Under the pieces are notes generated by a model. The model worked only from the letters and a program-made list of their open reading frames with translations. It did no database searches and was not told the origin of the DNA. Positions 3,720 through 27,896 of a DNA stretch of 27,896 nucleotides are shown here, one piece after another. The DNA comes from Octopus sinensis (lineage: Eukaryota): positions 1 to 27,896 of the forward strand of contig NW_021835571.1 of NCBI RefSeq assembly GCF_006345805.1, written 5' to 3'. Numbering within the stretch: the stretch's first letter is position 1; every line of letters starts with the position of its first letter. The translations under genes and the position numbers were made by a program.

Positions 3720-3936
3720 ATGGCATTGTTTAGTGAAAACCCCCAACTTAAATGGAGGAGGAAGAAAGCGGAAGCTGTCCTGGTGGTCGCCTCTGCTTTT
3801 ATCTGCAACGTTTTAATCCACAGTGTCATTGTATCACTTCATCTGTATTTTGCTGAACTGAATCGAGAATATCCAGATAACCGTGAACTTATATCAGTAA
3901 TTATATTCTTACCAGAAGCAGTTTACGGATTAATAG
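3720..3936 (+). CDS. SLC16/monocarboxylate transporter-like MFS protein, first coding exon (TM1-TM2)
   Basis: ATG at 3720 gives MALFSENPQLKWRRKKAEAVLVVASAFICNVLIHSV...YFAELNREY...LIG. Donor G|GTAAGT at 3937 is phase 1 and frame-compatible with the exon at 7160. The start codon is inferred. Confidence 0.8.
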
Positions 3937-6794: not shown

Positions 6795-6996
6795 GACCGC
6801 GTGTGTATCGTTGGCGACTTTTTCTGTCCTCCGTCTTCCCTTCTTTGGACCTTTCCTTTTCCTGTTTCTGACGAAGAGTTCCTCTCGAAATGTTAAATCT
6901 TCCTTCTTTCTTTCCTTTCCTGAGCGTCCAATAACACTATACTTGTTCCATGTCCTCGCGTTGTTGTGGTTTCTCTTTGTATTTTCATGTTTGGAT

Positions 6997-7159: not shown

Positions 7160-7303
7160 GACTTGTAAGTGGAGTGTTCATAAGCAGGTTTGGTGTGCGG
7201 ACAACAGCAATGGTCGGTGTTTTGGAAATAATCATAGGACTTGGTACCTCAGTGGTTTCTCCAAATCTGCCTTTCTTGATGTTTTCTCTGGGGATCTTAT
7301 CAG
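7160..7303 (+). CDS. SLC16-like transporter, second coding exon (144 bp; TM2 end-TM4)
   Basis: Acceptor ttggcAG|GA at 7158-7159. Encodes GLVSGVFISRFGVRTTAMVGVLEIIIGLGTSVVSPNLPFLMFSLGILSG with an MFS motif-A-like segment. Donor G|GTGAAG at 7304, phase 1/1. Confidence 0.88.
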
Positions 7304-7449
7304 GTGAAGTTGCTGTTTCTTTCTTTAATTGAGTGCTAAAAGTACGTCGTGAAATGAGCTCAAGGCTTTTGTCGTTTCCCAAATGACCGTTGTCACATGG
7401 AGGGAGAGGGCCGTAGGGTCAGTAACGAATGCAATTAGAAGAAGAAAGA

Positions 7450-7550
7450 ACCCGCATGTTTTGGGGTTCAATTCTACTGCTCGGCATCTTGAATTATTGT
7501 TTTCTACTGTAGCCCCGGGCCAACCAATACTTTGTAGGTAAATTTGCCTG
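7450..7550 (+). mobile_element. Diverged family B SINE fragment
   Basis: 'ggggttcaattctactgc...ttttctactgtagccccgggccaaccaatactttgt' aligns by eye to 1671-1760. Confidence 0.45.
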
Positions 7551-7579
7551 TCGGAATCTGCGTTGAAGGCCATCTTGAA

Positions 7580-7610
<31 letters not shown>

Positions 7611-7678
7611 TTATGTTTGGCAACCTGAATTAGTTTCTCTACATGTTCATAACTTACCGGTTTCATTTATATACATAC

Positions 7679-7759
<81 letters not shown>

Positions 7760-7785
7760 CTTTATCTCTCTCTCTCTCTCTCTTT

Positions 7786-7925
<140 letters not shown>

Positions 7926-8209
7926 ATATATTATATATATATATATATATATAAGTTTAACAATTAAGGATAATCTCTAATAAGGGATCTTAACAAGAAA
8001 TTATCGGGTAGCTAGCGTGAAAACCTCATAAAAGAAAAGAATCCGAAAATATTTTTTTCTTTTGAACAAATTAATTATATCTATATTGTATAAAGGGCAT
8101 TATTACACATAAATGCCTCACACTAGGAGGGACAAAGTCATTACTACCAAAAATTATACTATCATACCCAAATGCAGTTTTTCAAAGCAAGACATTAAAA
8201 ATGAATTAT

Positions 8210-8265
8210 GTTCTGTATCACCGTGATTTCACATACAACTTGCGTCTAATGATCGTCAGCAGAAC
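8210..8265 (-). ncRNA. Type I hammerhead ribozyme (first of 25 minus-strand copies)
   Basis: Minus strand reads GUUCUG-CUGACGA-U CAU UA GAC GCAA GUU GU AUG U-GAAA-UCA CGG UGA-UA^CAGAAC. It has a 6-bp stem I, the CUGANGA core, stem II capped by a GNRA loop, GAAA, stem III and an AUA cleavage triplet. The predicted cut is between 8216 and 8215. Confidence 0.88.
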
Positions 8266-11200
8266 TGATTCTGAATACATCATAAATAAACAACCTTATG
8301 TAGCGAAGACGAACAGACAACTGTTCACTCCGGCCAAGCACATGGAATGTTTATAATCATATATCCGGTAAATGGCGGGCTTTTTACGAACTGCATGTCG
8401 GGTAATGAAAAGTATTTCGGAATAAGTTTAACAATTAAGGATAATCTCTTAATAAGGGATCTTAACAAGAAATTATCGGGTAGCTAGCGTGAAAACCTCA
8501 TAAAGAAAAGAATCCGAAAATAATTTTTTTCTTTTGAACAAATTAATTATATCTATATTGTATAAAGGGCATTATTACACATAAATGCCTCACACTAGGA
8601 GGGACAAAGTCATTACTACCAAAAATTATACTAATCATACCCAAATGCAGTTTTTCAAAGCAAGACATTTAAAATGAATTATGTTCTGTATCACCGTGAT
8701 TTCACATACAACTTGCGTCTAATGATCGTCAGCAGAACTGATTCTGAATACATCATAAATAACCAACCTTATGTAGCGAAGACGAACAGACAACTGTTCA
8801 CTCCGGCCAAGCACATGGAATGTTTATAATCATATATCCGGTAAATGGCGGGCTTTTTACGAACTGCATGTCGGGTAATGAAAAGTATTTCGGAATAAGT
8901 TTACAATTAAGGATAATCTCTTAATAAGGGATCTTAACAAGAAATTATCGGGTAGCTAGCGTGAAAACCTCATAAAAGAAAAGAATCCGAAAATATTTTT
9001 TTCTTTTGAACAAATAATTATATCTATATGTATAAAGGGCATTATTACACATAAATGCCTCACACTAGGAGGGACAAAGTCATTACTACCAAAATTATAC
9101 TAATCATACCCAAATGCAGTTTTTCAAAGCAAGACATTTAAAAATGAATTATGTTCTGTATCACCGTGATTTCACATACAACTTGCGTCTAATGATCGTC
9201 AGCAGAACTGATTCTGAATACATCATAAATAACCAACCTTATGTAGCGAAGACGAACAGACAACTGTTCACTCCGGCCAAGCACATGGAATGTTTATAAA
9301 TCATATATCCGGTAAATGGCGGGCTTTTTACGAACTGCATGTCGGGTAATGAAAAGTATTTCGGAATAAGTTAACAATTAAGGATAATCTCTTAATAAGG
9401 GATCTTAACAAGAAATTATCGGGTAGCTAGCGTGAAAACCTCATAAAAGAAAAGAATCCGAAAATAATTTTTTCTTTTGAACAAATTAATTATATCTATA
9501 TTGTATAAAGGGCATTATTACACATAAATGCCTCACACTAGGAGGGACAAAGTCATTACTACCAAAATTATACTAATCATACCAAATGCAGTTTTTTCAA
9601 AGCAAGACATTTAAAAATGAATTATGTTCTGTATCACCGTGATTTCACATACAACTTGCGTCTAATGATCGTCAGCAGAACTGATTCTGAATACATCATA
9701 AATAAACCAACCTTATGTAGCGAAGACGAACAGACAACTGTTCACTCCGGCCAAGCACATGGAATGTTTATAAATCATATATCCGGTAAATGGCGGGCTT
9801 TTTACGAACTGCATGTCGGGTAATGAAAAGTATTTCGGAATAAGTTTAACAATTAAGGATAATCTCTTAATAAGGGATCTTAACAAGAATTATCGGGTAG
9901 CTAGCGTGAAAACCTCATAAAAGAAAAGAATCCGAAAATAATTTTTTTCTTTTGAACAAATTAATTATATCTATATTGTATAAAGGGCATTATTACACAT
10001 AAATGCCTCACACTAGGAGGGACAAAGTCATTACTACCAAAATTATACTAATCATACCCAAATGCAGTTTTTCAAAGCAAGACATTTAAAAATGAATTAT
10101 GTTCTGTATCACCGTGATTTCACATACAACTTGCGTCTAATGATCGTCAGCAGAACTGATTCTGAATACATCATAAATAAACCAACCTTATGTAGCGAAG
10201 ACGAACAGACAACTGTTCACTCCGGCCAAGCACATGGAATGTTTATAAATCATATATCCGGTAAATGGCGGGCTTTTTACGAACTGCATGTCGGGTAATG
10301 AAAAGTATTTCGGAATAAGTTTAACAATTAAGGATAATCTCTTAATAAGGGATCTTAACAAGAAATTATCGGGTAGCTAGCGTGAAAACCTCATAAAAGA
10401 AAAGAATCCGAAAATAATTTTTTCTTTTGAACAAATTAATTATATCTATATTGTATAAAGGGCATTATTACACATAAATGCCTCACACTAGGAGGGACAA
10501 AGTCATTACTACCAAAATTATACTAATCATACCCAAATGCAGTTTTTCAAAGCAAGACATTTAAAAATGAATTATGTTCTGTATCACCGTGATTTCACAT
10601 ACAACTTGCGTCTAATGATCGTCAGCAGAACTGATTCTGAATACATCATAAATAAACCAACCTTATGTAGCGAAGACGAACAGACAACTGTTCACTCCGG
10701 CCAAGCACATGGAATGTTTATAAATCATATATCCGGTAAATGGCGGGCTTTTTACGAACTGCATGTCGGGTAATGAAAAGTATTTCGGAATAAGTTTAAC
10801 AATTAAGGATAATCTCTTAATAAGGGATCTTAACAAGAAATTATCGGGTAGCTAGCGTGAAAACCTCATAAAAGAAAAGAATCCGAAAATAATTTTTTTC
10901 TTTGAACAAATTAATTATATCTATATTGTATAGAGGGCATTATTACACATAAATGCCTCACACTAGGAGGGACAAAGTCATTACTACCAAAAATTATACT
11001 ATCATACCCAAATGCAGTTTTTCAAAGCAAGACATTTAAAAATGAATTATGTTCTGTATCACCGTGATTTCACATACAACTTGCGTCTAATGATCGTCAG
11101 CAGAACTGATTCTGAATACATCATAAATAAACCAACCTTATGTAGCGAAGACGAACAGACAACTGTTCACTCCGGCCAAGCACATGGAATGTTTATAAAT

Positions 11201-14200
11201 CATATATCCGGTAAATGGCGGGCTTTTTACGAACTGCATGTCGGGTAATGAAAAGTATTTCGGAATAAGTTTAACAATTAAGGATAATCTCTTAATAAGG
11301 GATCTTAACAAGAAATTATCGGGTAGCTAGCGTGAAAACCTCATAAAGAAAAGAATCCGAAAATAATTTTTTCTTTTGAACAAATTAATTATATCTATAT
11401 TGTATAAAGGGCATTATTACACATAAATGCCTCACACTAGGAGGGACAAAGTCATTACTACAAAAATTATACTAATCATACCCAAATGCAGTTTTTCAAA
11501 GCAAGACATTTAAAAATGAATTATGTTCTGTATCACCGTGATTTCACATACAACTTGCGTCTAATGATCGTCAGCAGAACTGATTCTGAATACATCATAA
11601 ATAAACCAACCTTATGTAGCGAAGACGAACAGACAACTGTTCACTCCGGCCAAGCACATGGAATGTTTATAATCATATATCCGGTAAATGGCGGGCTTTT
11701 TACGAACTGCATGTCGGGTAATGAAAAGTATTTCGGAATAAGTTTAACAATTAAGGATAATCTCTTAATAAGGGATCTTAACAAGAATTATCGGGTAGCT
11801 AGCGTGAAAACCTCATAAAAGAAAAGAATCCGAAAATAATTTTTTTCTTTTGAACAAATTAATTATATCTATATTGTATAAAGGGCATTATTACACATAA
11901 ATGCCTCACACTAGGAGGGACAAAGTCATTACTACAAAAATTATACTAATCATACCCAAATGCAGTTTTTCAAAGCAAGACATTTAAAAATGAATTATGT
12001 CTGTATCACCGTGATTTCACATACAACTTGCGTCTAATGATCGTCAGCAGAACTGATTCTGAATACATCATAAATAAACCAACCTTATGTAGCGAAGACG
12101 AACAGACAACTGTTCACTCCGGCCAAGCACATGGAATGTTTATAAATCATATATCCGGTAAATGGCGGGCTTTTTACGAACTGCATGTCGGGTAATGAAA
12201 AGTATTTCGGAATAAGTTTAACAATTAAGGATAATCTCTTAATAAGGGATCTTAACAAGAAATTATCGGGTAGCTAGCGTGAAAACCTCATAAAAGAAAA
12301 GAATCCGAAAATAATTTTTTTCTTTTGAACAATTAATTATATCTATATTGTATAAAGGGCATTATTACACATAATGCCTCACACTAGGAGGGACAAAGTC
12401 ATTACTACAAAAATTATACTAATCATACCAAATGCAGTTTTTCAAAGCAAGACATTTAAAAATGAATTATGTCTGTATCACCGTGATTTCACATACAACT
12501 TGCGTCTAATGATCGTCAGCAGAACTGATTCTGAATACATCATAAATAAACCAACCTTATGTAGCGAAGACGAACAGACAACTGTTCACTCCGGCCAAGC
12601 ACATGGAATGTTTATAAATCATATATCCGGTAAATGGCGGGCTTTTTACGAACTGCATGTCGGGTAATGAAAAGTATTTCGGAATAAGTTTAACAATTAA
12701 GGATAATCTCTTAATAAGGGATCTTAACAAGAAATTATCGGGTAGCTAGCGTGAAAACCTCATAAAAGAAAAGAATCCGAAAATAATTTTTTTCTTTTGA
12801 ACAAATTAATTATATCTATATTGTATAAGGGCATTATTACACATAAATGCCTCACACTAGGAGGGACAAAGTCATTACTACCAAAATTATACTAATCATA
12901 CCCAAATGCAGTTTTTCAAAGCAAGACATTTAAAAATGAATTATGTTCTGTATCACCGTGATTTCACATACAACTTGCGTCTAATGATCGTCAGCAGAAC
13001 TGATTCTGAATACATCATAAATAAACCAACCTTATGTAGCGAAGACGAACAGACAACTGTTCACTCCGGCCAAGCACATGGAATGTTTATAAATCATATA
13101 TCCGGTAAATGGCGGCTTTTTACGAACTGCATGTCGGGTAATGAAAAGTATTTCGGAATAAGTTTAACAATTAAGGATAATCTCTTAATAAGGGATCTTA
13201 ACAAGAAATTATCGGGTAGCTAGCGTGAAAACCTCATAAAGAAAAGAATCCGAAAATAATTTTTTTCTTTTGAACAATTAATTATATCTATATTGTATAA
13301 AGGGCATTATTACACATAAATGCCTCACACTAGGAGGGACAAAGTCATTACTACCAAAAATTATACTAATCATACCCAAATGCAGTTTTTCAAAGCAAGA
13401 CATTTAAAAATGAATTATGTTCTGTATCACCGTGATTTCACATACAACTTGCGTCTAATGATCGTCAGCAGAACTGATTCTGAATACATCATAAATAAAC
13501 CAACCTTATGTAGCGAAGACGAACAGACAACTGTTCACTCCGGCCAAGCACATGGAATGTTTATAAATCATATATCCGGTAAATGGCGGGCTTTTTACGA
13601 ACTGCATGTCGGGTAATGAAAAGTATTTCGGAATAAGTTTAACAATTAAGGATAATCTCTTAATAAGGGATCTTAACAAGAATTATCGGGTAGCTAGCGT
13701 GAAAACCTCATAAAAGAAAAGAATCCGAAAATATTTTTTTCTTTTGAACAAATTAATTATATCTATATTGTATAAGGGCATTATTACACATAAATGCCTC
13801 ACACTAGGAGGGACAAAGTCATTACTACCAAAAATTATACTAATCATACCCAAATGCAGTTTTTCAAAGCAAGACATTTAAAAATGAATTATGTTCTGTA
13901 TCACCGTGATTTCACATACAACTTGCGTCTAATGATCGTCAGCAGAACTGATTCTGAATACATCATAAATAAACCAACCTATGTAGCGAAGACGAACAGA
14001 CAACTGTTCACTCCGGCCAAGCACATGGAATGTTTATAAATCATATATCCGGTAAATGGCGGGCTTTTTACGAACTGCATGTCGGGTAATGAAAAGTATT
14101 TCGGAATAAGTTTAACAATTAAGGATAATCTCTTAATAAGGGATCTTAACAAGAAATTATCGGGTAGCTAGCGTGAAAACCTCATAAAAGAAAAGAATCC

Positions 14201-17200
14201 GAAAATAATTTTTTTCTTTTGAACAATTAATTATATCTATATTGTATAAAGGCATTATTACACATAAATGCCTCACACTAGGAGGGACAAAGTCATTACT
14301 ACCAAAAATTATACTAATCATACCCAAATGCAGTTTTTCAAAGCAAGACATTTAAAAAATGAATTATGTTCTGTATCACCGTGATTTCACATACAACTTG
14401 CGTCTAATGATCGTCAGCAGAACTGATTCTGAATACATCATAAATAAACCAACCTTATGTAGCGAAGACGAACAGACAACTGTTCACTCCGGCCAAGCAC
14501 ATGGAATGTTTATAAATCATATATCCGGTAAATGGCGGGCTTTTTACGAACTGCATGTCGGGTAATGAAAAGTATTTCGGAATAAGTTTAACAATTAAGG
14601 ATAATCTCTTAATAAGGGATCTTAACAAGAAATTATCGGGTAGCTAGCGTGAAAACCTCATAAAAGAAAAGAATCCGAAAATAATTTTTTCTTTTGAACA
14701 AATTAATTATATCTATATTGTATAAAGGGCATTATTACACATAATGCCTCACACTAGGAGGGACAAAGTCATTACTACAAAAATTATACTAATCATACCC
14801 AATGCAGTTTTTTCAAAGCAAGACATTTAAAAATGAATTATGTTCTGTATCACCGTGATTTCACATACAACTTGCGTCTAATGATCGTCAGCAGAACTGA
14901 TTCTGAATACATCATAAATAAACCAACCTTATGTAGCGAAGACGAACAGACAACTGTTCACTCCGGCCAAGCACATGGAATGTTTATAATCATATATCCG
15001 GTAAATGGCGGGCTTTTTACGAACTGCATGTCGGGTAATGAAAAGTATTTCGGAATAAGTTTAACAATTAAGGATAATCTCTTAATAAGGGATCTTAACA
15101 AGAAATTATCGGGTAGCTAGCGTGAAAACCTCATAAAAGAAAAGAATCCGAAAATAATTTTTTTCTTTTGAACAAATTAATTATATCTATATTGTATAAA
15201 GGGCATTATTACACATAAATGCCTCACACTAGGAGGGACAAAGTCATTACTACCAAAAATTATACTAATCATACCCAAATGCAGTTTTTCAAAGCAAGAC
15301 ATTTAAAAATGAATTATGTTCTGTATCACCGTGATTTCACATACAACTTGCGTCTAATGATCGTCAGCAGAACTGATTCTGAATACATCATAAATAAACC
15401 AACCTTATGTAGCGAAGACGAACAGACAACTGTTCACTCCGGCCAAGCACATGGAATGTTTATAAATCATATATCCGGTAAATGGCGGGCTTTTTACGAA
15501 CTGCATGTCGGGTAATGAAAAGTATTTCGGAATAAGTTTAACAATTAAGGATAATCTCTTAATAAGAAATTATCGGGTAGCTAGCGTGAAAACCTCATAA
15601 AAGAAAAGAATCCGAAAATAATTTTTTTCTTTTGAACAAATTAATTATATCTATATTGTATAAAGGGCATTATTACACATAAATGCCTCACACTAGGAGG
15701 GACAAAGTCATTACTACCAAAATTATACTAATCATACCCAAATGCAGTTTTTCAAAGCAAGACATTTAAAATGAATTATGTTCTGTATCACCGTGATTTC
15801 ACATACAACTTGCGTCTAATGATCGTCAGCAGAACTGATTCTGAATACATCATAAATAAACCAACCTTATGTAGCGAAGACGAACAGACAACTGTTCACT
15901 CCGGCCAAGCACATGGAATGTTTATAAATCATATATCCGGTAAATGGCGGGCTTTTTACGAACTGCATGTCGGGTAATGAAAAGTATTTCGGAATAAGTT
16001 TAACAATTAAGGATAATCTCTTAATAGGGATCTTAACAAGAAATTATCGGGTAGCTAGCGTGAAAACCTCATAAAAGAAAAGAATCCGAAAATAATTTTT
16101 TCTTTTGAACAAATTAATTATATCTATATTGTATAAAGGGCATTATTACACATAAATGCCTCACACTAGGAGGGACAAAGTCATTACTACCAAAATTATA
16201 CTAATCATACCCAAATGCAGTTTTTCAAAGCAAGACATTTAAAAATGAATATGTTCTGTATCACCGTGATTTCACATACAACTTGCGTCTAATGATCGTC
16301 AGCAGAACTGATTCTGAATACATCATAAATAACCAACCTTATGTAGCGAAGACGAACAGACAACTGTTCACTCCGGCCAAGCACATGGAATGTTTATAAA
16401 TCATATATCGGTAAATGGCGGGCTTTTTACGAACTGCATGTCGGGTAATGAAAAGTATTTCGGAATAAGTTTAACAATTAAGGATAATCTCTTAATAAGG
16501 GATCTTAACAAGAAATTATCGGGTAGCTAGCGTGAAAACCTCATAAAAGAAAAGAATCCGAAAATAATTTTTTTCTTTTGAACAAATTAATTATATCTAT
16601 ATTGTATAAAGGGCATTATTACACATAAATGCCTCACACTAGGAGGGACAAAGTCATTACTACCAAAAATTATACTAATCATACCCAAATGCAGTTTTTC
16701 AAAGCAAGACATTTAAAAATGAATTATGTCTGTATCACCGTGATTTCACATACAACTTGCGTCTAATGATCGTCAGCAGAACTGATTCTGAATACATCAT
16801 AAATAAACCAACCTTATGTAGCGAAGACGAACAGACAACTGTTCACTCCGGCCAAGCACATGGAATGTTTATAAATCATATATCCGGTAAATGGCGGGCT
16901 TTTTACGAACTGCATGTCGGGTAATGAAAAGTATTTCGGAATAAGTTAACAATTAAGGATAATCTCTTAATAAGGGATCTTAACAAGAATTATCGGGTAG
17001 CTAGCGTGAAAACCTCATAAAAGAAAAGAATCCGAAAATAATTTTTTTCTTTTGAACAAATTAATTATATCTATATTGTATAAGGGCATTATTACACATA
17101 ATGCCTCACACTAGGAGGGACAAAGTCATTACTACCAAAAATTATACTAATCATACCCAAATGCAGTTTTTCAAAGCAAGACATTTAAAATGAATTATGT

Positions 17201-19571
17201 TCTGTATCACCGTGATTTCACATACAACTTGCGTCTAATGATCGTCAGCAGAACTGATTCTGAATACATCATAAATAAACCAACCTTATGTAGCGAAGAC
17301 GAACAGACAACTGTTCACTCCGGCCAAGCACATGGAATGTTTATAAATCATATATCCGGTAAATGGCGGCTTTTTACGAACTGCATGTCGGGTAATGAAA
17401 AGTATTTCGGAATAAGTTTAACAATTAAGGATAATCTCTTAATAAGGGATCTTAACAAGAAATTATCGGGTAGCTAGCGTGAAAACCTCATAAAAGAAAA
17501 GAATCCGAAAATAATTTTTTTCTTTTGAACAAATTAATTATATCTATATTGTATAAAGGGCATTATTACACATAAATGCCTCACACTAGGAGGGACAAAG
17601 TCATTACTACCAAAAATTATACTAATCATACCCAAATGCAGTTTTTCAAAGCAAGACATTTAAAAATGAATTATGTTCTGTATCACCGTGATTTCACATA
17701 CAACTTGCGTCTAATGATCGTCAGCAGAACTGATTCTGAATACATCATAAATAACCAACCTTATGTAGCGAAGACGAACAGACAACTGTTCACTCCGGCC
17801 AAGCACATGGAATGTTTATAAATCATATATCCGGTAAATGGCGGGCTTTTTACGAACTGCATGTCGGGTAATGAAAAGTATTTCGGAATAAGTTTAACAA
17901 TTAAGGATAATCTCTTAATAAGGGATCTTAACAAGAATTATCGGGTAGCTAGCGTGAAAACCTCATAAAAGAAAAGAATCCGAAAATAATTTTTTCTTTT
18001 GAACAAATTAATTATATCTATATTGTATAAAGGGCATTATTACACATAAATGCCTCACACTAGGAGGGACAAAGTCATTACTACCAAAAATTATACTAAT
18101 CATACCCAAATGCAGTTTTTCAAAGCAAGACATTTAAAAATGAATTATGTTCTGTATCACCGTGATTTCACATACAACTTGCGTCTAATGATCGTCAGCA
18201 GAACTGATTCTGAATACATCATAAATAAACCAACCTTATGTAGCGAAGACGAACAGACAACTGTTCACTCCGGCCAAGCACATGGAATGTTTATAAATCA
18301 TATATCCGGTAAATGGCGGGCTTTTTACGAACTGCATGTCGGGTAATGAAAAGTATTTCGGAATAAGTTTAACAATTAAGGATAATCTCTTAATAAGGGA
18401 TCTTAACAAGAATTATCGGGTAGCTAGCGTGAAAACCTCATAAAAGAAAAGAATCCGAAAATAATTTTTTTCTTTGAACAAATTAATTATATCTATATTG
18501 TATAAAGGGCATTATTACACATAAATGCCTCACACTAGGAGGGACAAAGTCATTACTACCAAAATTATACTAATCATACCCAATGCAGTTTTTTCAAAGC
18601 AAGACATTTAAAAAATGAATTATGTTCTGTATCACCGTGATTTCACATACAACTTGCGTCTAATGATCGTCAGCAGAACTGATTCTGAATACATCATAAA
18701 TAAACCAACCTATGTAGCGAAGACGAACAGACAACTGTTCACTCCGGCCAAGCACATGGAATGTTTATAAATCATATATCCGGTAAATGGCGGGCTTTTT
18801 ACGAACTGCATGTCGGGTAATGAAAAGTATTTCGGAATAAGTTTAACAATTAAGGATAATCTCTTAATAAGGGATCTTAACAAGAATTATCGGGTAGCTA
18901 GCGTGAAAACCTCATAAAAGAAAAGAATCCGAAAATAATTTTTTTCTTTTGAACAAATTAATTATATCTATATTGTATAAAGGGCATTATTACACATAAA
19001 TGCCTCACACTAGGAGGGACAAAGTCATTACTACCAAAAATTATACTAATCATACCCAAATGCAGTTTTTCAAAGCAAGACATTTAAAAATGAATTATGT
19101 TCTGTATCACCGTGATTTCACATACAACTTGCGTCTAATGATCGTCAGCAGAACTGATTCTGAATACATCATAAATAACCAACCTTATGTAGCGAAGACG
19201 AACAGACAACTGTTCACTCGGCCAAGCACATGGAATGTTTATAAATCATATATCCGGTAAATGGCGGGCTTTTTACGAACTGCATGTCGGGTAATGAAAA
19301 GTATTTCGGAATAAGTTTAACAATTAAGGATAATCTCTTAATAAGGGATCTTAACAAGAAATTATCGGGTAGCTAGCGTGAAAACCTCATAAAGAAAAGA
19401 ATCCGAAAATAATTTTTTTCTTTTGAACAAATAATTATATCTATATTGTATAAAGGGCATTATTACACATAAATGCCTCACACTAGGAGGGACAAAGTCA
19501 TTACTACCAAAAATTATACTAATCATACCCAAATGCAGTTTTTCAAAGCAAGACATTTAAAAATGAATTAT

Positions 19572-19627
19572 GTTCTGTATCACCGTGATTTCACATACAA
19601 CTTGCGTCTAATGATCGTCAGCAGAAC
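19572..19627 (-). ncRNA. Type I hammerhead ribozyme (last minus-strand copy)
   Basis: Identical to the 8210-8265 motif. Confidence 0.85.
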
Positions 19628-19921
19628 TGATTCTGAATACATCATAAATAACCAACCTTATGTAGCGAAGACGAACAGACAACTGTTCACTCCGGCCAAG
19701 CACATGGAATGTTTATAAATCATATATCCGGTAAATGGCGGGCTTTTTACGAACTGCATGTCGGGTAATGAAAAGTATTTCGGAATAAGTTTAACAATTA
19801 AGGATAATCTCTTAATAAGGGATCTTAACAAGAAATTATCGGGTAGCTAGCGTGAAAACCTCATAAAAGAAAAGAATCCGAAAATAATTTTTTTCTTTTG
19901 AACAAATTAATTATATCTATA

Positions 19922-20494
19922 TTTGAAAAACTGCATTTGGGTATGATTAGTATAATTTTTGGTAGTAATGACTTTGTCCCTCCTAGTGTGAGGCATTTAT
20001 GTGTAATAATGCCCTTTATACAATATAGATATAATTAATTTGTTCAAAAGAAAAAAATTATTTTCGGATTCTTTTCTTTTATGAGGTTTTCACGCTAGCT
20101 ACCGATAATTTCTTGTTAAGATCCCTTATTAAGAGATTATCCTTAATTGTTAAACTTATTCCGAAATACTTTTCATTACCCGACATGCAGTTCGTAAAAA
20201 GCCCGCCATTTACCGGATATATGATTTATAAACATTCCATGTGCTTGGCCGGAGTGAACAGTTGTCTGTTCGTCTTCGCTACATAAGGTTGGTTTATTTA
20301 TGATGTATTCAGAATCAGTTCTGCTGACGATCATTAGACGCAGTTGTATGTGAAATCACGGTGATACAGAACATAATTCATTTTTAAATGTCTTGCTTTG
20401 AAAAACTGCATTTGGGTATGATTAGTATAATTTTTGGTAGTAATGACTTTGTCCCTCCTAGTGTGAGGCATTTATGTGTAATAATGCCCTTTAT

Positions 20495-20502
<8 letters not shown>
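19922..20502 (+). repeat. Inverted 1.2-unit arm of the 475-bp repeat
   Basis: Reverse complement of the array unit, starting tttgaaaaactgcatttggg and ending gccctttatacaatata, then (TA)n. Confidence 0.96.
20318..20372 (+). ncRNA. Type I hammerhead ribozyme, plus-strand copy in the inverted arm
   Basis: GTTCTG CTGACGA TCATTAGACGCAGTTGTATGT GAAA TCACGGTGA TA CAGAAC. One A is missing from loop II, which could be real or a consensus error. Confidence 0.82.
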
Positions 20503-20526
<24 letters not shown>

Positions 20527-20582
20527 CGTTTAAATATTTGTTGTGCAAGATTTTTTATGTAAAGTCGTGTGTTGAAACAGAT

Positions 20583-20853
20583 ATTGTTATATTTCGGAAT
20601 GGTCATATTCCCAGTTTAGCCAATAAAAACACACGTACTATATATTTGGCGTTATTTTGCTTCAGTGTTATAAGAAAGAAGAAAACAAAGGACCACTGAT
20701 GCGGTCACAGGAGTGTGACGAAAGAACTCTGGCCGAAATAAGATTAAGATTAATGTAAAAAATAAATAACACTGAAGCAAATAACACCAAATATATAGTG
20801 CGTGTGTTTTTATTGGCTAAACTGGCAAAATGACCATTCCGAAATATAACAAT
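20583..20853. mobile_element. Penelope-like terminal remnant: ~88-bp inverted arms (20583-20671 / 20766-20853) enclosing a decayed hammerhead (20690-20734, +)
   Basis: Arms are reverse complements with a few mismatches. The spacer contains GGACCA-CTGATGC-G-GTCACA GGAG TGTGAC-GAAA-G AA C-TC-TGGCC. The insert is flanked by (TA)n. Confidence 0.6.
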
Positions 20854-20879
20854 TATATATATAATATATATTATATATA

Positions 20880-20923
<44 letters not shown>

Positions 20924-20958
20924 AATGAATCTATATATATATATTATATATAAATGAA

Positions 20959-21002
<44 letters not shown>

Positions 21003-21105
21003 ACTGAATATATAATATATAATATATATATGTAATATATTCATTTATATATATATATTATATATATATATATAATGAATCTATATATATATATATAAAT
21101 GAATG

Positions 21106-21185
<80 letters not shown>

Positions 21186-21324
21186 CATTCATTTACCTTT
21201 CTATCTCAAGTTAACCAACATGAATATTGGAACACATTAAAAGGGCAATTCAGATAATTTATTTTCGTTAAGAATCAAATTCCTATTTTATAATTTAACA
21301 TTTTCTCGGGACCTAAGGTAACAA

Positions 21325-21490
21325 AACCGTTAGTGCGTCGTTCAAATGCTGAGTAGCCTTTCTGGTGGTTCTTTACGTTCTGAGTTCAAATTCCACCAAG
21401 GTCGACTTTACCTTTCGTTCTTTGAGGGTCGATAAAAGAAATATCACAAATTCCAGGCCTCGTGCCCATGGCAGAAGGGATTATTATTAT
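21325..21490 (+). mobile_element. Family A SINE, diverged and internally deleted
   Basis: B box GAGTTCAAATTCC, 'ggtcgacttt' core and (ATT)n tail. Confidence 0.7.
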
Positions 21491-21706
21491 GGCGGTGAGC
21501 TGGCAGAATCGTTAGCACACCGGACGAGATGTTTAACAGTATTTCACGCATCGCTACGTTCTGAGTTCAAATTCCGCCCAGGTCGACTTTGCCTTTTATC
21601 CTTTCGGGGTCGATAAAACAAGTACTGGGGTCGATATAATGGACTGTCCCCCTCCTTCAAACTTTCAGGCCTTGTGCCTCAAGTAGAAAGGATTATTATT
21701 ATTATT
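21491..21706 (+). mobile_element. Family A tRNA-derived SINE inserted in the tail of the preceding copy
   Basis: GGCGGTGAGCTGGCAGAATCGTTAG (A box), GAGTTCAAATTCC (B box) and (ATT)n tail. Confidence 0.85.
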
Positions 21707-21991
21707 TGATGTTTGACTTTTGCCTTACATTTGTACAAGTTGGCTCCAAATCACACCCAGAGGCCTCAAGAGACAACACGTTGGAAGTTCATGTTGGTGT
21801 TATGCCTAGTGTGCCATATATTTGGTTTTGTACTTAGTGTTGTTCTAGAGAATGTTTAAGAAACCATAAGAAAATTATGTTTGTTTTAAAACTTGAGATT
21901 ATATTGAAAGTATTTTGCGAAGGATATGAGCAGTTCCCATGAGCACTATCTTTTGAATTTCTGCCATTTTGGGGTTTCCTGGTATCTGAGC
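21707..21991 (-). mobile_element. 5'-truncated R4/Dong-like non-LTR retrotransposon (ORF C-terminus + 3' UTR)
   Basis: 21991-21899 translates AQIPGNPKMAEIQKIVLMGTAHILRKILSI*, resembling the C-terminus of R4/Dong-clade RLE ORFs. A ~190-nt 3' UTR ends in (TAA)n, and both flanks are (ATT)n. Confidence 0.7.
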
Positions 21992-22002
21992 TTATTATTA
22001 TA

Positions 22003-22040
<38 letters not shown>

Positions 22041-22063
22041 TATTATTATCATTATCATTATTA

Positions 22064-22127
<64 letters not shown>

Positions 22128-22135
22128 CATTATTA

Positions 22136-22223
<88 letters not shown>

Positions 22224-22240
22224 CATTATTATCATTATTA

Positions 22241-22284
<44 letters not shown>
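21992..22284. repeat. (ATT)n/(ATC) microsatellite
   Basis: Direct reading. Confidence 0.97.
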
Positions 22285-22289
22285 GTTAA

Positions 22290-22490
22290 GGCGGTGAGTT
22301 GGCAGAATCGTTAGTACGCTGGACGAAATGCTCAGCAGTATGTTCTGAGTTCAAATTTCGCTGAGGTCGACTTTGCCTTTTATCCTTTCAGGGTCGATGA
22401 AAATAAGTACCAGTTAAAAACTGGGTTCGATATAATCAATTAGTTTTGCCCCACCCCAAATTCAGGCTTTGTGCCTATAGTAAAAATAGG
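22290..22490 (+). mobile_element. Family A SINE
   Basis: Same head, B box and core as 21491. Confidence 0.8.
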
Positions 22491-22500
22491 GAAAAAAATA

Positions 22501-22531
22501 TACTAACCTTTACTTGTGGCTTATTTTTTAG
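22501..22531 (+). promoter_or_regulatory. Branch point (TACTAAC 22501-22507) and 3' splice site of SLC16-like intron 2
   Basis: Perfect branch-point consensus with the branch A 25 nt upstream of the end of the ttttttAG acceptor (22530-22531). Confidence 0.75.
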
Positions 22532-23593
22532 GCAAAGGCTGTTCGTTTGTGTACTTCTCTCTGAACGTGGCTCTCTTTACATACTTTCCAAACGTTGGTC
22601 GCCAGTTGGTCTCCTTGGTCAGTGTTGGTGAAGGTGTTTGTTTTATTTTTGCTCTTCCTTTGATCTCATACTTCATTGAATCTTACGGTTGGCGGTATAG
22701 TTTGCTTTTACTGTGTGGCATCGAAATGCACTGTATTCCGTTCGCACTTATCTACAGCATGAAAGCAGGCGTCGCACATGGTAATTGCAAAATGTCCAGC
22801 CATTCTACAAGAGCAGCCATACGAACGGCCTCGTTTTTTGAAAGCAAGAAAAATCCACCGGCATCAAACGAGAACCATGCGAATCAGCCACAAAATAACG
22901 AGAGGAAAGAAGATCAATGCAATCTGTATTCAACTGCTACAACAAATAAAGCTTTTGAAGACACGGAATGTGATGACGCTAATAGCGGTGATAAAGATTC
23001 CACAAACGATAAACCAGAACATTTAAACTCACCACGGTTGAATGACTCCCCTATACCAAATGACGATGACAGTTCGATAGAAGTGGAGCGACCCGAGTCC
23101 AAGGAAAAGCATGGAATTAATTTAAAAAGCTGGAGAAATTTAGCCGCAAATAAAATGTACATGTTAGCTTTAATATCGGCGACCACCTTTCTTAGTACGT
23201 CAATGGTCATGCTGACGATTCTTCCTGATTTTTGCATGCAGCACGGCTTGTCACTCTCTCAAGGAGCTTGGAATAGCGCAATATCTTCAATAGGGGATAT
23301 CATCGCACGTTTTTTGGGTTCCTGGCTTCTTCATTCGAAACTGTTACCGAGCATAGTGATTTTTTCCTCAGCGATCATCATATGTGGGATTGCAATGTCG
23401 GTCTTTATCGCCGTCAACACATTGACTTATATCACCCTGACTTCGTTCTTTTTCATGTTATTCAATGGACTCGCTTACTCTCAGTACGGTGTAATCTTCT
23501 TGGATCTTGTCGATTTAGAGGACTACGCTCTGGGGATGGGCCTGAACGAAACTCTTGCTGGCATTGGTCTCTTACTGTGCGGTTATCTAGTCA
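22532..23593 (+). CDS. SLC16-like transporter, large third coding exon (TM4-TM11 including hydrophilic central loop)
   Basis: Open frame with 'LISYFIESYGWRYSLLLLCGIEMHC' (MCT YGWR motif), a long polar loop and TM8 'GDIIARF' (DxxxR pair). Phase-1 acceptor at 22531 and donor A|GTAAGT at 23594. Confidence 0.92.
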
Positions 23594-24205
23594 GTAAGTA
23601 TCTCTAAACATTTTTGGTATTTCCTCAAGTGATTGGACATGTGTGTAGGCATGCTCATATACGTGTGTGCGCATGTGCAGGATTATGACTAGAGATATAT
23701 GTGTATGCATGCATGCGTGTCTGTGCATGAGTCTGTAACGGTGAAAGATTATTTGTAGCTGTGAGATTTGTTGGTAAGATGTAAAAAATGGTCACTGCAT
23801 GAGGTTTTAAGAAAATACTTATTTACCGACGAAGGACAATCATCCTGAAACACGTGTCCCTAGATGCAGCCCGGGCGGCTGGGGGTATTTGTCTCCCCTT
23901 CGTAAATGTATATAAGGACACAGGAAAAATGTGTCAAAGCCATCAGGAGGCGTCGATGCTTCCTAGGACGAAACAGCGGTGGTGTCACGTTCGTGTTAGA
24001 TTGACAGTATACAACCATTCTATCGCCCCACCACCGTACATGTCTCTACGAGAGATTTAGAAATTTAGTATTTAGAGACGGGCAGGTTGTGATAGAGTCC
24101 GAAAGCATGCGAAGTGAACAAGTTAATTTCGACCTGTATGTTCTCGTTGTAGCAGTAAAGCAGTTAACCATAGAGAGGGGGATATGCTATTGTGTAGAGA
24201 AGAGA

Positions 24206-24437
24206 GGACGGCGGCGAGGAGGAGCTGGCAGAAACATTAGCGAAATGCGTAGCCGTATTTCGTCTGCCGTTACGTTCTGACTTCAAATTCCGCCGAGGTC
24301 GACTTTGCCTTTCATCCTTTCGGGGTCGATTAAATAAGTACCAGTTACGCACTGGGGTCAATATAATCGACTTAATCCGTTTGTCTGTCATTGTTTTTCC
24401 TCTCTATGTTTAGCCCCTTGTGGGTAGTAAAGAAATA
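24206..24437 (+). mobile_element. Family A-related SINE with 18-bp target-site duplication
   Basis: TATTGTGTAGAGAAGAGA occurs at 24188-24205 and 24438-24455. Head GAGCTGGCAGAAAC, core 'gaggtcgactttgcctttcatcctttcggggtcgat'. Confidence 0.88.
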
Positions 24438-26717: not shown

Positions 26718-27896
26718 CCGGTGTTTCAGAAAATTTGATATCATTTGAGATGTAAATATCACAGAAGCTACCAAGGTCAAAGCGAATGAAATTAAACAGG
26801 CTTAGTGTTTTGTAACATAAGATCTATTCCTCCAAATTTTTAATAAGAAACTCAAAGGTTCGTGGGTTCCATGAGCGATTTTACAAATGTTCAATATGCG
26901 CACCACCTGAGACAGGGTGAAGTCGGTAGTGCAGCTCCTCCCAAACACGTTGTTGCATGTCTTCGGTAACAGTCTCCAGTGCGGTAGTGGTTCTATGCTC
27001 GAGTTCCTCTATGTTTGAAGGAAGAGGCCCTTCACATAACCCCAGAAAACAATCGAAAGGTGTCAGGTGAGATGAACGAGGCGGCCATTTCCACATCACA
27101 TTCTCTTAATCACCAGCACGCCCGACCCATCTCCCTCGTAGATTGTTCATGAGACAAGTCTTCCACACTGTGTTTCTAGTGAGGTGGAACCCCGTCCTGT
27201 TGAAAAAAGAAGTCTTCATGTTCATTTGCAAAGATCTCATCCATTAACCAATTCTGAAGCGTTTACAGCAAAACATTGCCGGTTACATTTCCCTCAAAGA
27301 AAAACGGGCGATGAAGATGCTTCTTGGACATGGCGCAGAACACGTTTGGTGAGTCCTTCTCATACTCAATTGTGGCATGGGATTTTCTTCGCCCTAAGTG
27401 TGAACCTTATGCTTATTGACTTTGCCATTCGGATGAAATGTGGCCTCAGCACTGAAAACAAGACGTTTCTTGAACTCAGCTTTATCAAGTTTCTCTTGCA
27501 TATCAACAGAGAATTGTTGGCGCTTTTGCTTGTCATCTGCTGTTATGACCTGAACAAGCTGCAGCTTGTAAGGTTTCATAAGCAAGCGTTTTCTCAGGAA
27601 GCGCCAAACTGTCGTTGGAGGAATCTGGGTTTCCAGACTTAGTTCTTCTTGGGGATTCGCAAGAGTATTTGGCAGGCGTGCTCGACTATCTCTTCCGATG
27701 TTAGTGGTCGTCCAGATCATTTTGCCCTGCACAGGCAGCCTGACTCTTTGAACTTTTTGCGCCATGTCCAAATCTGCATTGCCGTTGGTGACTTTTTAGA
27801 GAACTCTCTCACAAATGCACGCTCCAACACACAAAACGCCTTTTCTCTTCCAGTGAATGCCATTTCTGTACTTGAAAAGATAAACACATCAACAAT
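26718..27896 (-). mobile_element. Tc1/mariner DNA transposon (rosa-like), other end outside window
   Basis: TA|CCGGTGTTTCAGAAAA TIR-like end at 26718 in a TA run. Contains the decayed transposase listed below. Confidence 0.8.
26881..27863 (-). pseudogene. Inactivated Tc1/mariner transposase
   Basis: Fragments across frames: MAFTGREKAFCVLE, IPPTTVWRFLRKRLLMKPYKLQLVQ, LVFSAEATFHPNGKVNKH (FSDEA), FQQDGVPPH*, WPPRSSHLTP (SPDL) and GGAHIEHL*. It has frameshifts, stops and two mutated catalytic Asp. Confidence 0.88.

Follow-up and report, generated by a model that had tools for sequence, protein, structure and literature searches.

A two-armed hammerhead retrozyme array in an Octopus sinensis intron and its candidate Penelope-like route of insertion

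The window analysed here is the whole of an unplaced 27.9-kb contig of Octopus sinensis (NW_021835571.1; 27,896 nt). It carries exons of a major facilitator transporter (LOC115231307, MFS_1), whose annotated protein, P0001, joins host exon 2 to host exon 3 in phase across an intron occupied by a large repeat array (Table 1). Tandem Repeats Finder (TRF) reported period 474, 25.3 copies and 98% matches over the long arm. Mapping onto a circularized unit resolved the array into 25.2 minus-sense units and an inverted arm of 1.22 units with one hammerhead. The 25 tandem copies plus one inverted copy described in the initial annotation, and their intronic position, are thereby confirmed. The insertion has lengthened the intron from ~2.7 to 15.2 kb and places a 580-bp near-perfect hairpin in the transporter pre-mRNA; the short arm matches the forward copies in 577 of 583 columns.

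Table 1. Features of the array, its flanks and the host gene in the window. Circle positions refer to the circularized unit.
Feature	Position	Strand	Remarks
Host MFS transporter coding exon 1	3720..3936	+	
Host exon 2, donor of array-bearing intron	7160..7303	+	
(TA)n target flank, site A side	7668..7950		Overlap with element end 3 nt
Long arm	7951..19923	-	25.2 head-to-tail 477-nt units, ribozyme sense on minus; outer (3') end at circle site A (269), inner end at circle 131
Cut-to-cut monomer (predicted circular RNA)	14848..15323	-	GC 33%, without conserved ORF
Representative type I hammerhead	19565..19634	-	Predicted cut between 19578 and 19577 (AUA^CAGAAC)
5'-to-5' arm junction	19922..19923		Microhomology 2 nt
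Short inverted arm	19922..20502	+	1.22 units; start circle 31, outer (3') end circle site B (136)
Sole hammerhead in host pre-mRNA sense	20316..20374	+	Predicted cut after 20366
(TA)n target flank, site B side	20498..20526		Overlap with element end 5 nt
Host exon 3 (MFS_1, PF07690)	22532..23607	+	

The majority unit of the array is 477 nt long. Once homopolymers are compressed 23 of the 25 units are identical, so that the differences between units mostly look like long-read indels. Sense ORFs do not exceed 41 aa. A 98-aa antisense ORF has no Pfam match and shrinks to 43 aa or less in three relatives, and it was rejected as a gene since it is not conserved. The 477-nt unit lacks an ORF for reverse transcriptase (RT) plus GIY-YIG endonuclease and is thus not an autonomous Penelope-like element (PLE). 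The unit has neither an A/B box nor an octamer or a TATA in the sense direction, and its sense strand contains seven runs of four or more U, a combination that argues against transcription by Pol III. The unit is present in 20 of 21 listed sequencing runs from 7 studies, none of them on record as RNA. Among the contigs of four runs, pieces of the unit occur in three runs that we guessed to be RNA, in a form from which strand, level and circularity cannot be read.

On the minus strand the motif GUUCUG-CUGACGA-stem II-GAAA-stem III-UA^CAGAAC is present 25 times, and the plus strand has a single copy; a type I hammerhead is thereby found in 26 of 26 units of the window. The plus-strand copy is one A short in loop II, probably a read error. 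The reading as a retrozyme-type hammerhead repeat with its ribozyme on the minus strand is supported, and the 477-nt monomer starting CAGAAC is upheld as a prediction. The core is intact in 230 of 246 full copies, and its sole locus-fixed change lies at N7. Both sides have changed in 7 of 14 hammerhead pairs, and none of 500 shuffles reached the covariation score; the stems covary across five subfamilies, a positive outcome for one of the checks proposed in the initial annotation. The predicted circle folds better in the sense (z −6.4) than in the antisense (z −3.4). The sense-biased fold, the covariation and the confinement of core change to N7 speak for selection at the RNA level. Fixed variants keep the structure at 8 of 10 paired sites versus 56% expected, a sample too small to count.

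Other features of the ribozyme are less canonical. An Rfam scan of both strands returned neither a hammerhead nor any other ribozyme, and the expected hammerhead match was absent at the gathering threshold and at E ≤ 10. The isolated 70-nt motif fold was not significant (z 0.5). Stem II had been described as GNRA-capped. A GCAA loop does cap a distal 3-bp helix past a 2x2 internal loop, but the base of the stem is a U.U mismatch and not the G10.1-C11.1 pair. The proposed extension of stem I folds in the window subfamily (p 0.68-0.78) but is missing from the sister subfamily, and thus it is not a conserved tertiary-contact motif. Stem III pairs with a probability of only 0.05-0.08 in the monomer fold; it is a near-palindrome with a predicted dimer duplex of −11.9 kcal/mol.

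The exact ribozyme pattern matched 1,181 times genome-wide and its control 0 times, and thus it is not a chance pattern. With a further 2,304 exact matches the genome holds at least 3,485 copies, and the dispersed copies that were anticipated do exist. The sister subfamily is 72% identical to the window subfamily. We found no LTR architecture across 30 loci of the window subfamily, and both element ends lie inside (TA)n, a tract that masks any target-site duplication. On its sequence features the array is classified as a non-LTR retrozyme family. As far as the available text of the sources goes (PMC7229834; bioRxiv 10.64898/2026.07.22.740005), it resembles the metazoan non-LTR retrozymes of coral, mussel and axolotl in having a tandem unit that is non-coding, low in GC and bears a single type I hammerhead, in its self-paired predicted circle and in its dispersed arrays, and the axolotl HHR_Amex2 likewise has U.U at the base of helix II. 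The class is already known, and neither unit size nor copy number is exceptional. A unit at or beyond the long end of the family was an overstatement: 477 nt exceeds the 150-450 bp given in the available text of PMC7229834 but falls within the 51-972 bp of that of bioRxiv 10.64898/2026.07.22.740005. Nor are 25 copies high for one locus beside the 62-mers, 180-mers and 300-mers reported in these same portions.

What is new is the insertion footprint. The inverted copy, treated in the initial annotation as a mere detail, is the key to the mechanism. The loci described here are the best BLAST matches or the first contig-1 matches and are not a random sample. In the window subfamily 26 of 30 are two-armed, always 5'-to-5' and in (TA)n or (ATAG)n, and among unselected contig-1 matches 28 of 29 two-strand clusters are divergent (13/13 and 15/16, counted by eye). 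Exactly one outer end falls at site A (centre ~269, counted as circle 255-270) in all 25 window-subfamily loci with both ends readable; the other falls at circle 124-142 in 21 of the 25, mostly at site B (136-142). The sister subfamily has one end at each orthologous site in 16 of 16 two-armed loci, and the two-armed design recurs in subfamilies 64-78% identical. Exact junctions of site A with (TA)n number 179 across the genome, and the 100 listed include no divergent A/A pair; B/B loci number 0 of 41. The window subfamily is put at about 180 or more loci and the sister subfamily at several hundred. One-armed loci of the window subfamily end at or near site A (4/4), those of the sister subfamily at site B (4/4, including one chimera and one beside a gap), so site A is no longer taken to be the first primer in every case.

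The inner ends behave differently from these fixed outer ends. They are scattered, 47 of 50 being distinct, with no inner junction common to loci and a lean towards the first fifth of the circle (17/50; Rayleigh p about 0.08). Just one of the 50 lies within 10 nt of the ribozyme cut, where ~2 are expected, and in 18 of 24 loci each arm is longer than one unit; both results speak for a template without ends. Overlap at the 18 insert-free junctions (of 26) averages 2.5 nt versus 0.76 by chance.

The arms of a locus also share their sequence variants, which points to a single template molecule. In the window subfamily they differ at 1 of 9,833 sites, versus 0.30% between loci; the sister family shows 0.48% within and 3.8% between. 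Eight loci have locus-specific substitutions on all or nearly all copies of both arms. There are 15 such locus-fixed alleles, of which 10 are private to one locus. The window locus itself has no private variant, so its single-template origin is taken from the family. An A>G excess on the ribozyme strand (7 of 15 fixed alleles, p 0.04) was not reproduced in the sister family (7 A>G versus 8 T>C) and was dropped.

A link to PLEs comes from one locus, L181, which is a single insertion with a PLE as its left arm and 2.97 sister-retrozyme units as its right arm. The right arm switches by microhomology into 132 nt of the 3' UTR of the left-arm PLE (99% identical to the left arm). This PLE family is Neptune-type and has intact 784-aa open frames for RT plus GIY-YIG. 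It also carries a hammerhead-like motif, ends in (TA)n, forms inverted arms and has two 3' ends separated by 30 nt. Such chimeras number 1 of 20 sister loci and 0 of 30 window-subfamily loci, and the one found involves the older subfamily. Four other loci (L182, L161, L187, L033) were rejected as chimeras; PLE pieces lie near the array, with other sequence in between. A second PLE, family A (781-aa ORF, copies 98-99% identical), is a possible helper too, but it lacks a hammerhead core, rarely shows inverted arms and does not match the unit. BLAST gave no significant match between the unit and the PLE termini of 46 GIY-YIG loci or of 5 stretches from family C, with 150 of 5,029 candidates scored. 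Site B bears a short PLE resemblance, CCCTT..ATAC..ATATA, which is only a lead, and family C keeps the rule of one end at each site in 1 of 2 two-armed loci.

The hallmarks of PLE insertion are present in the octopus family: a microsatellite target, an inverted 5'-truncated copy and two 3' ends (compare PMC8557442, PMC11167929). The likeness to Neptune/Nematis-type PLEs extends to (TA)n as the target, partial tandems, a tail at only one of the two 3' ends and a hammerhead in the repeat unit (PMC8557442, PMC11167929, PMC4209133). The octopus unit differs in having no ORF and no detectable similarity in sequence to the PLE termini examined, in an end spacing of ~130 nt versus 30-40 in PLEs, and in arms that reach 25 full tandem units. 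One purified PLE protein cleaves both strands and extends them, with RT starting internally at two sites (PMC11167929). Why PLEs have tandem and inverted ends has been called unexplained (PMC8557442).

We consider it probable that a Penelope-like enzyme carries out rolling-circle reverse transcription of a single circular RNA, primed from both DNA ends, with cleavage and circle predicted from structure. Transcription of the array would proceed in the ribozyme sense, with Pol II as the probable polymerase. Its hammerheads, probably acting as dimers, would release 477-nt monomers that are ligated to circles, as the structure and known retrozymes suggest. A PLE enzyme would then cut both strands of a (TA)n tract, the target being observed and the enzyme presumed, and the two DNA 3' ends would prime cDNA synthesis on a common circle, at site A and site B respectively, in keeping with the observed end positions and strand. 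If both primers copy one strand, the template must be single-stranded and of ribozyme sense. Each RT would circle for 0.1 to 25 turns, and the two cDNA ends would be joined by the 2-4 nt of microhomology seen at the junctions. The window would be one such event, with 25.2 turns from site A and 1.2 from site B. The element is likewise likely to be a non-autonomous retroelement, a non-LTR retrozyme moved by a PLE RT/GIY-YIG endonuclease. A circular template for the cDNA and mobilization by PLEs have been proposed as a model (available text of PMC7229834 and bioRxiv 10.64898/2026.07.22.740005). The U.U start of stem II weighs against the predicted cleavage, as does the failure of 8 of 9 predicted Xenopus retrozymes to cleave.

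The same element and PLE-type double priming could also operate on a long linear multimer that is transcribed from an array already in place and left uncut, a reading we regard as unlikely. The weak monomer stem III and the U.U in stem II may slow cutting, uncut linear RNA is the dominant PLE substrate in vitro (PMC11167929), which weighs against a circle, and the transcript of a uniform array would likewise yield uniform arms. However, fixing a new mutation in all daughter copies, as in the locus-fixed alleles above, would need a bottleneck of one unit followed by re-expansion, and arrays would shrink with each generation, yet 25-mers exist. Neither the scatter of the inner ends nor the lack of a pile-up of 5' ends at the cut fits such a template. 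If instead one arm came from RNA and the other were a DNA copy made by fold-back of the first cDNA, with microhomology providing the capture on (TA)n, arms of the same orientation and identical sequence would be predicted. The 5-nt overlap at site B is open in the fold while a better 6-nt site at 332 is buried, and in 5 of 26 loci (~2 expected) the two inner ends are no more than 20 nt apart. A fold-back arm cannot outgrow its template, though, and in 6 of 24 loci it is the site B arm that is longer (e.g., 10.9 versus 0.3 units); B/B loci, expected if either site could go first, are missing among the 41. We hold this to be very improbable.

Still less credence goes to spread at the DNA level, either by rolling-circle copying of extrachromosomal DNA circles or by satellite growth through unequal exchange after a short insertion. 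It is able to yield uniform tandem arrays, and local expansion of PLE termini is favoured in the available text of bioRxiv 10.64898/2026.07.22.740005, but it would require random end positions and polarity and is already largely refuted. It leaves unexplained the two fixed end sites on one strand, the constant 5'-to-5' polarity, the variants common to inverted arms and the structural covariation. That the array is an artefact of assembly or amplification, such as a fold-back chimera or an over-expanded repeat, is extremely improbable. The contig is unplaced, its copies differ mainly by read-type indels so that the copy number of 25 could be off, and no run contig among the matches listed crosses the arm junction. 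Against this, 42 two-armed loci on chromosome-scale contigs show the same design with a separate junction in each, and it recurs in the diverged subfamilies; the unit itself is found in nearly all of the runs listed.

The double-primed reading also sets the family apart from better known systems. In LINE-1 twin priming both target strands prime cDNA on one RNA and microhomology joins the arms. The second primer limits the first cDNA there, so the arms abut. The window junction suggested this classical form, which failed across loci: the octopus arms abut in 2 of 25 (2.1 expected by chance), and both traverse the same sequence many times. Viroid-like and HDV-like agents share the small, highly paired hammerhead circle and the haplotype diversity among templates. 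The octopus family differs in that its ribozyme was seen on one strand in the motif search (Rfam gave none on either), in its thousands of genomic copies and in having no conserved ORF. Compared with the metazoan retrozymes, its two-armed inverted insertions, two fixed end sites, single-template haplotypes and PLE chimera are octopus features, undescribed in the available text, and 'inverted' has 0 matches in that of PMC7229834. Our literature search, which covered few subscription journals and no repeat databases, found no cephalopod retrozyme and no two-armed retrozyme insertions.

The element is young, and the family young enough for its footprints to be unblurred. The copying route and enzyme of animal retrozymes are so far a hypothesis in the portions of the literature available. 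The octopus family supplies exact start sites, the strand that serves as template, a candidate helper whose frames are intact and a substrate of 477 nt, which makes an in vitro test directly feasible. There is about an even chance that each two-armed array is a fossil record of one circular RNA, in which a dimeric Neptune-type PLE enzyme holds one ribozyme circle, sets two fixed start sites at the cut (TA)n ends and runs two rolling-circle RTs together. A natural RT that turns a small circle into 12 kb of cDNA in (TA)n would interest tool builders. If this reading is true, the arrays would be genomic proof of circular RNA as the retrozyme intermediate, with its helper named, and the tandem, inverted and tailed ends of PLEs would have one possible explanation. 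The arrays would also log the RNA's own variants, possibly including A-to-I edits returned to the germ line.

The array lies in the second intron of an Octopus sinensis MFS transporter gene, identified by protein search, and is bordered on either side by (TA)n. The window is an entire unplaced contig of a 2.72 Gb genome, and the copy number on such a contig may be inexact. Of 25 units, 23 are identical as homopolymer-compressed sequences, so the true copies are probably nearly all alike. The dispersed copies that the initial annotation proposed to look for are found elsewhere in the genome: pattern searches returned 1,181 window-type ribozymes and 2,304 of a sister subfamily (control 0 for the latter), whose units of 469-484 nt are 70-73% identical to the window unit. 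Further subfamilies are 78% and about 64% identical. We compared 30 loci, namely the window and every one of the 29 others to which matches 1-150 (of 316) belong; this sample is biased to young, long arrays. The family is real and recently active, and by sequence criteria the element behaves like, and belongs with, the non-LTR retrozymes, as had been proposed. The comparison literature comprises bioRxiv 10.64898/2026.07.22.740005, PMC7229834, PMC11167929, PMC8557442, PMC7761336 and PMC4209133.

Features of the window and of other loci in the genome (L-numbers, fetched loci; G000:C3, contig 3 of the genome; PLE, Penelope-like element)
Feature	Position	Strand
Second intron, array host	7304-22531	
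Long arm, 25.2 tandem 477-nt units	7951-19923	minus
Inverted arm, 1.22 units	19922-20502	
Remnant of a different repeat (small, two-armed, inverted)	20527-20856	
Degenerate hammerhead-like core of that remnant	about 20695-20725	
Short inverted-repeat remnants between TA tracts (by eye)	2020-2220, 2750-2850, 6860-6900	
High-copy repeats of very high depth, presumably SINE-like	21320-21700, 22280-22480, 24210-24420, 810-1030	
Resembles a broken DNA-transposon gene (by eye)	26720-27896	minus
Fifth retrozyme subfamily, about 64% identical, stem II long	L190:430-1030	
Two tail-to-tail site A ends	G000:C3:37477787-37477882	
Very young family A PLE	L094:1636-6470	
Chimeric insertion (also at L190)	L181:353-3375	
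Family C hammerhead-like motif	L195:500-570	minus
Unrelated type I hammerhead, palindromic loop III, near a PLE ORF	L101:7010-7065	

A hammerhead had been assigned to every copy, and the core CUGACGA...GAAA...UA is indeed present in 26/26 window motifs. The suggested Rfam check left these motifs unscored, and the isolated motif folds no better than shuffles; ribozyme identity rests on comparative evidence. Among 12 hand-picked distinct ribozymes 95% of cells pair and 7 of 14 pairs differ on both sides, which bears out the stem covariation sought among genomic copies. Their covariation score was reached by 0/500 shuffles, with slid controls near zero, although the 12 are related and the shuffle result is thus not a probability. 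Among locus-fixed changes the core varies at N7 only. Position 10.1-11.1 is U.U, A-U or G-C according to subfamily, and U.U is likewise reported for one axolotl retrozyme (PMC7229834). Stem III is near-palindromic and weak in the fold, a pattern consistent with the dimeric ribozymes reported from animal repeats. Folding of the full unit gives a paired circle with stem I as its closing helix (z -6.4 for the sense strand, -3.4 for the antisense), with two-sided change at 16/142 consensus pairs in 10 units. The predicted cleavage may be slow or absent, given that 8/9 retrozyme predictions in Xenopus did not cleave (bioRxiv 10.64898/2026.07.22.740005).

Insertions typically consist of two arms, runs of units whose outer ends border (TA)n and whose inner ends meet (26/30 loci; one arm in 4/30). 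The arm junction is invariably 5′-to-5′, the ribozyme strand reading outwards, and the same polarity was seen by eye in 28/29 two-strand clusters from contig-1 listings that we did not select. Positions are given on the predicted circular RNA (the circle), 1 being the base directly 3′ of the predicted cut. Both outer ends could be read in 25 loci, and in all 25 one end, never both, lies at site A (269, scored as 255-270 to allow for ends blurred by TA errors); L062, which extends past the end of its contig, was excluded. The other end falls at 124-142 in 21 loci and at 109, 111, 220 or 407 in four. The one-end-per-site rule held in 16/16 two-armed sister cases (20 loci). Exact junctions with (TA)n number 179 genome-wide for site A and 17 for the 136 end alone, and no divergent A/A pair occurs among the 100 site A junctions listed of the 179. 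On contig 3 two site A ends meet within one tiny TA tract, probably as two separate insertions. The circle's best (AT)n match (6 nt, starting position 332 not being used as an end in any locus) sits inside the fold, whereas 136-142 (site B) is open. Inner ends are scattered (1/50 near the cut), with a mean overlap of 2.5 nt in 18/26 junctions and short inserts in the other 8.

Within a locus the two arms disagree at a single site out of 9,833 (23 loci), compared with a divergence of 0.30% from one locus to another; the sister values are 0.48% within and 3.8% between loci (14 loci). Eight loci have substitutions shared by every copy, or almost every copy, on either arm, as in L040 and L046 (15/15 copies). 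A new variant that fills a whole array must pass through a single unit and then be copied many times. Twin priming of L1 is a comparison mechanism. Single-unit passage, constant outer ends confined to one strand and the lack of a template-end trace make rolling-circle reverse transcription of one circle, started from both DNA ends, the simplest account; we infer that it would involve transcription, cleavage, ligation, priming and a supplied enzyme. The window locus carries the majority haplotype, so its one-template origin is inferred from the family. One sequencing run has a haplotype seemingly matching L058/L059 (coordinates converted by hand). On the ribozyme strand 7/15 locus-fixed alleles, from several loci, are A>G (52, 158, 229, 340, 368, 393, 396), none after G; ADAR has a neighbour preference. 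They are possibly RNA editing copied into DNA, an excess not repeated in the sister subfamily.

The window element was rejected as an autonomous PLE, and the unit showed no pseudo-LTR homology to the PLE loci compared. PLEs have microsatellite targets, an inverted 5′-truncated copy and tailing of a single end (PMC8557442), and the octopus insertions likewise show PLE-type traits. A purified PLE protein, a predicted dimer, cleaves both strands, extends each of them and initiates at two internal sites; it used uncut RNA in vitro, which counts against a circle template (PMC11167929). Several intact PLE families occur in the genome. In family A neither a hammerhead core nor a match to the unit was found; its copies are 98-99% identical, with a 781-aa ORF, an upstream 479-aa ORF and two 3′ ends separated by about 45 nt. 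Family C forms the left arm of the chimera at L181, whose right arm extends from site B through 2.97 sister units and switches, at a 3-nt overlap, to a 132-nt piece of that PLE's 3′ UTR, which joins the left arm; no PLE sequence lies beyond the right arm. The 784-aa frames of family C, with RT, C-terminal GIY-YIG and a CX4CxxC linker, point to the Neptune/Nematis type. Tandem copies lie 4.4 kb apart, and in the hammerhead-like motif UUGAAAA replaces CUGANGA, with U3 and A8 for the C3-G8 pair. The family has two 3′ ends separated by 30 nt, of which the longer resembles site B; only 1/2 of its loci had one end of each kind, a point against the proposed mechanism. The chimera is one event, and in an older subfamily, so we regard family C as a candidate helper rather than a proven one.

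The remnant adjoining the array looks PLE-like, with a tail of roughly 60 nt confined to one of its arms and close copies elsewhere in the genome. Two of the three short remnants carry minimal hammerhead-like words (by eye).

In the literature search we found neither a cephalopod retrozyme nor a two-armed retrozyme insertion; the supplement of PMC7229834 could list more species or draw an insertion model. The retrozyme class is already known, and what is new is a readable insertion mechanism. In the host pre-mRNA the inverted arm would form a 580-bp near-perfect hairpin with 18800-19923 and would contribute one sense-strand hammerhead, on which editing or small-RNA pathways might act.
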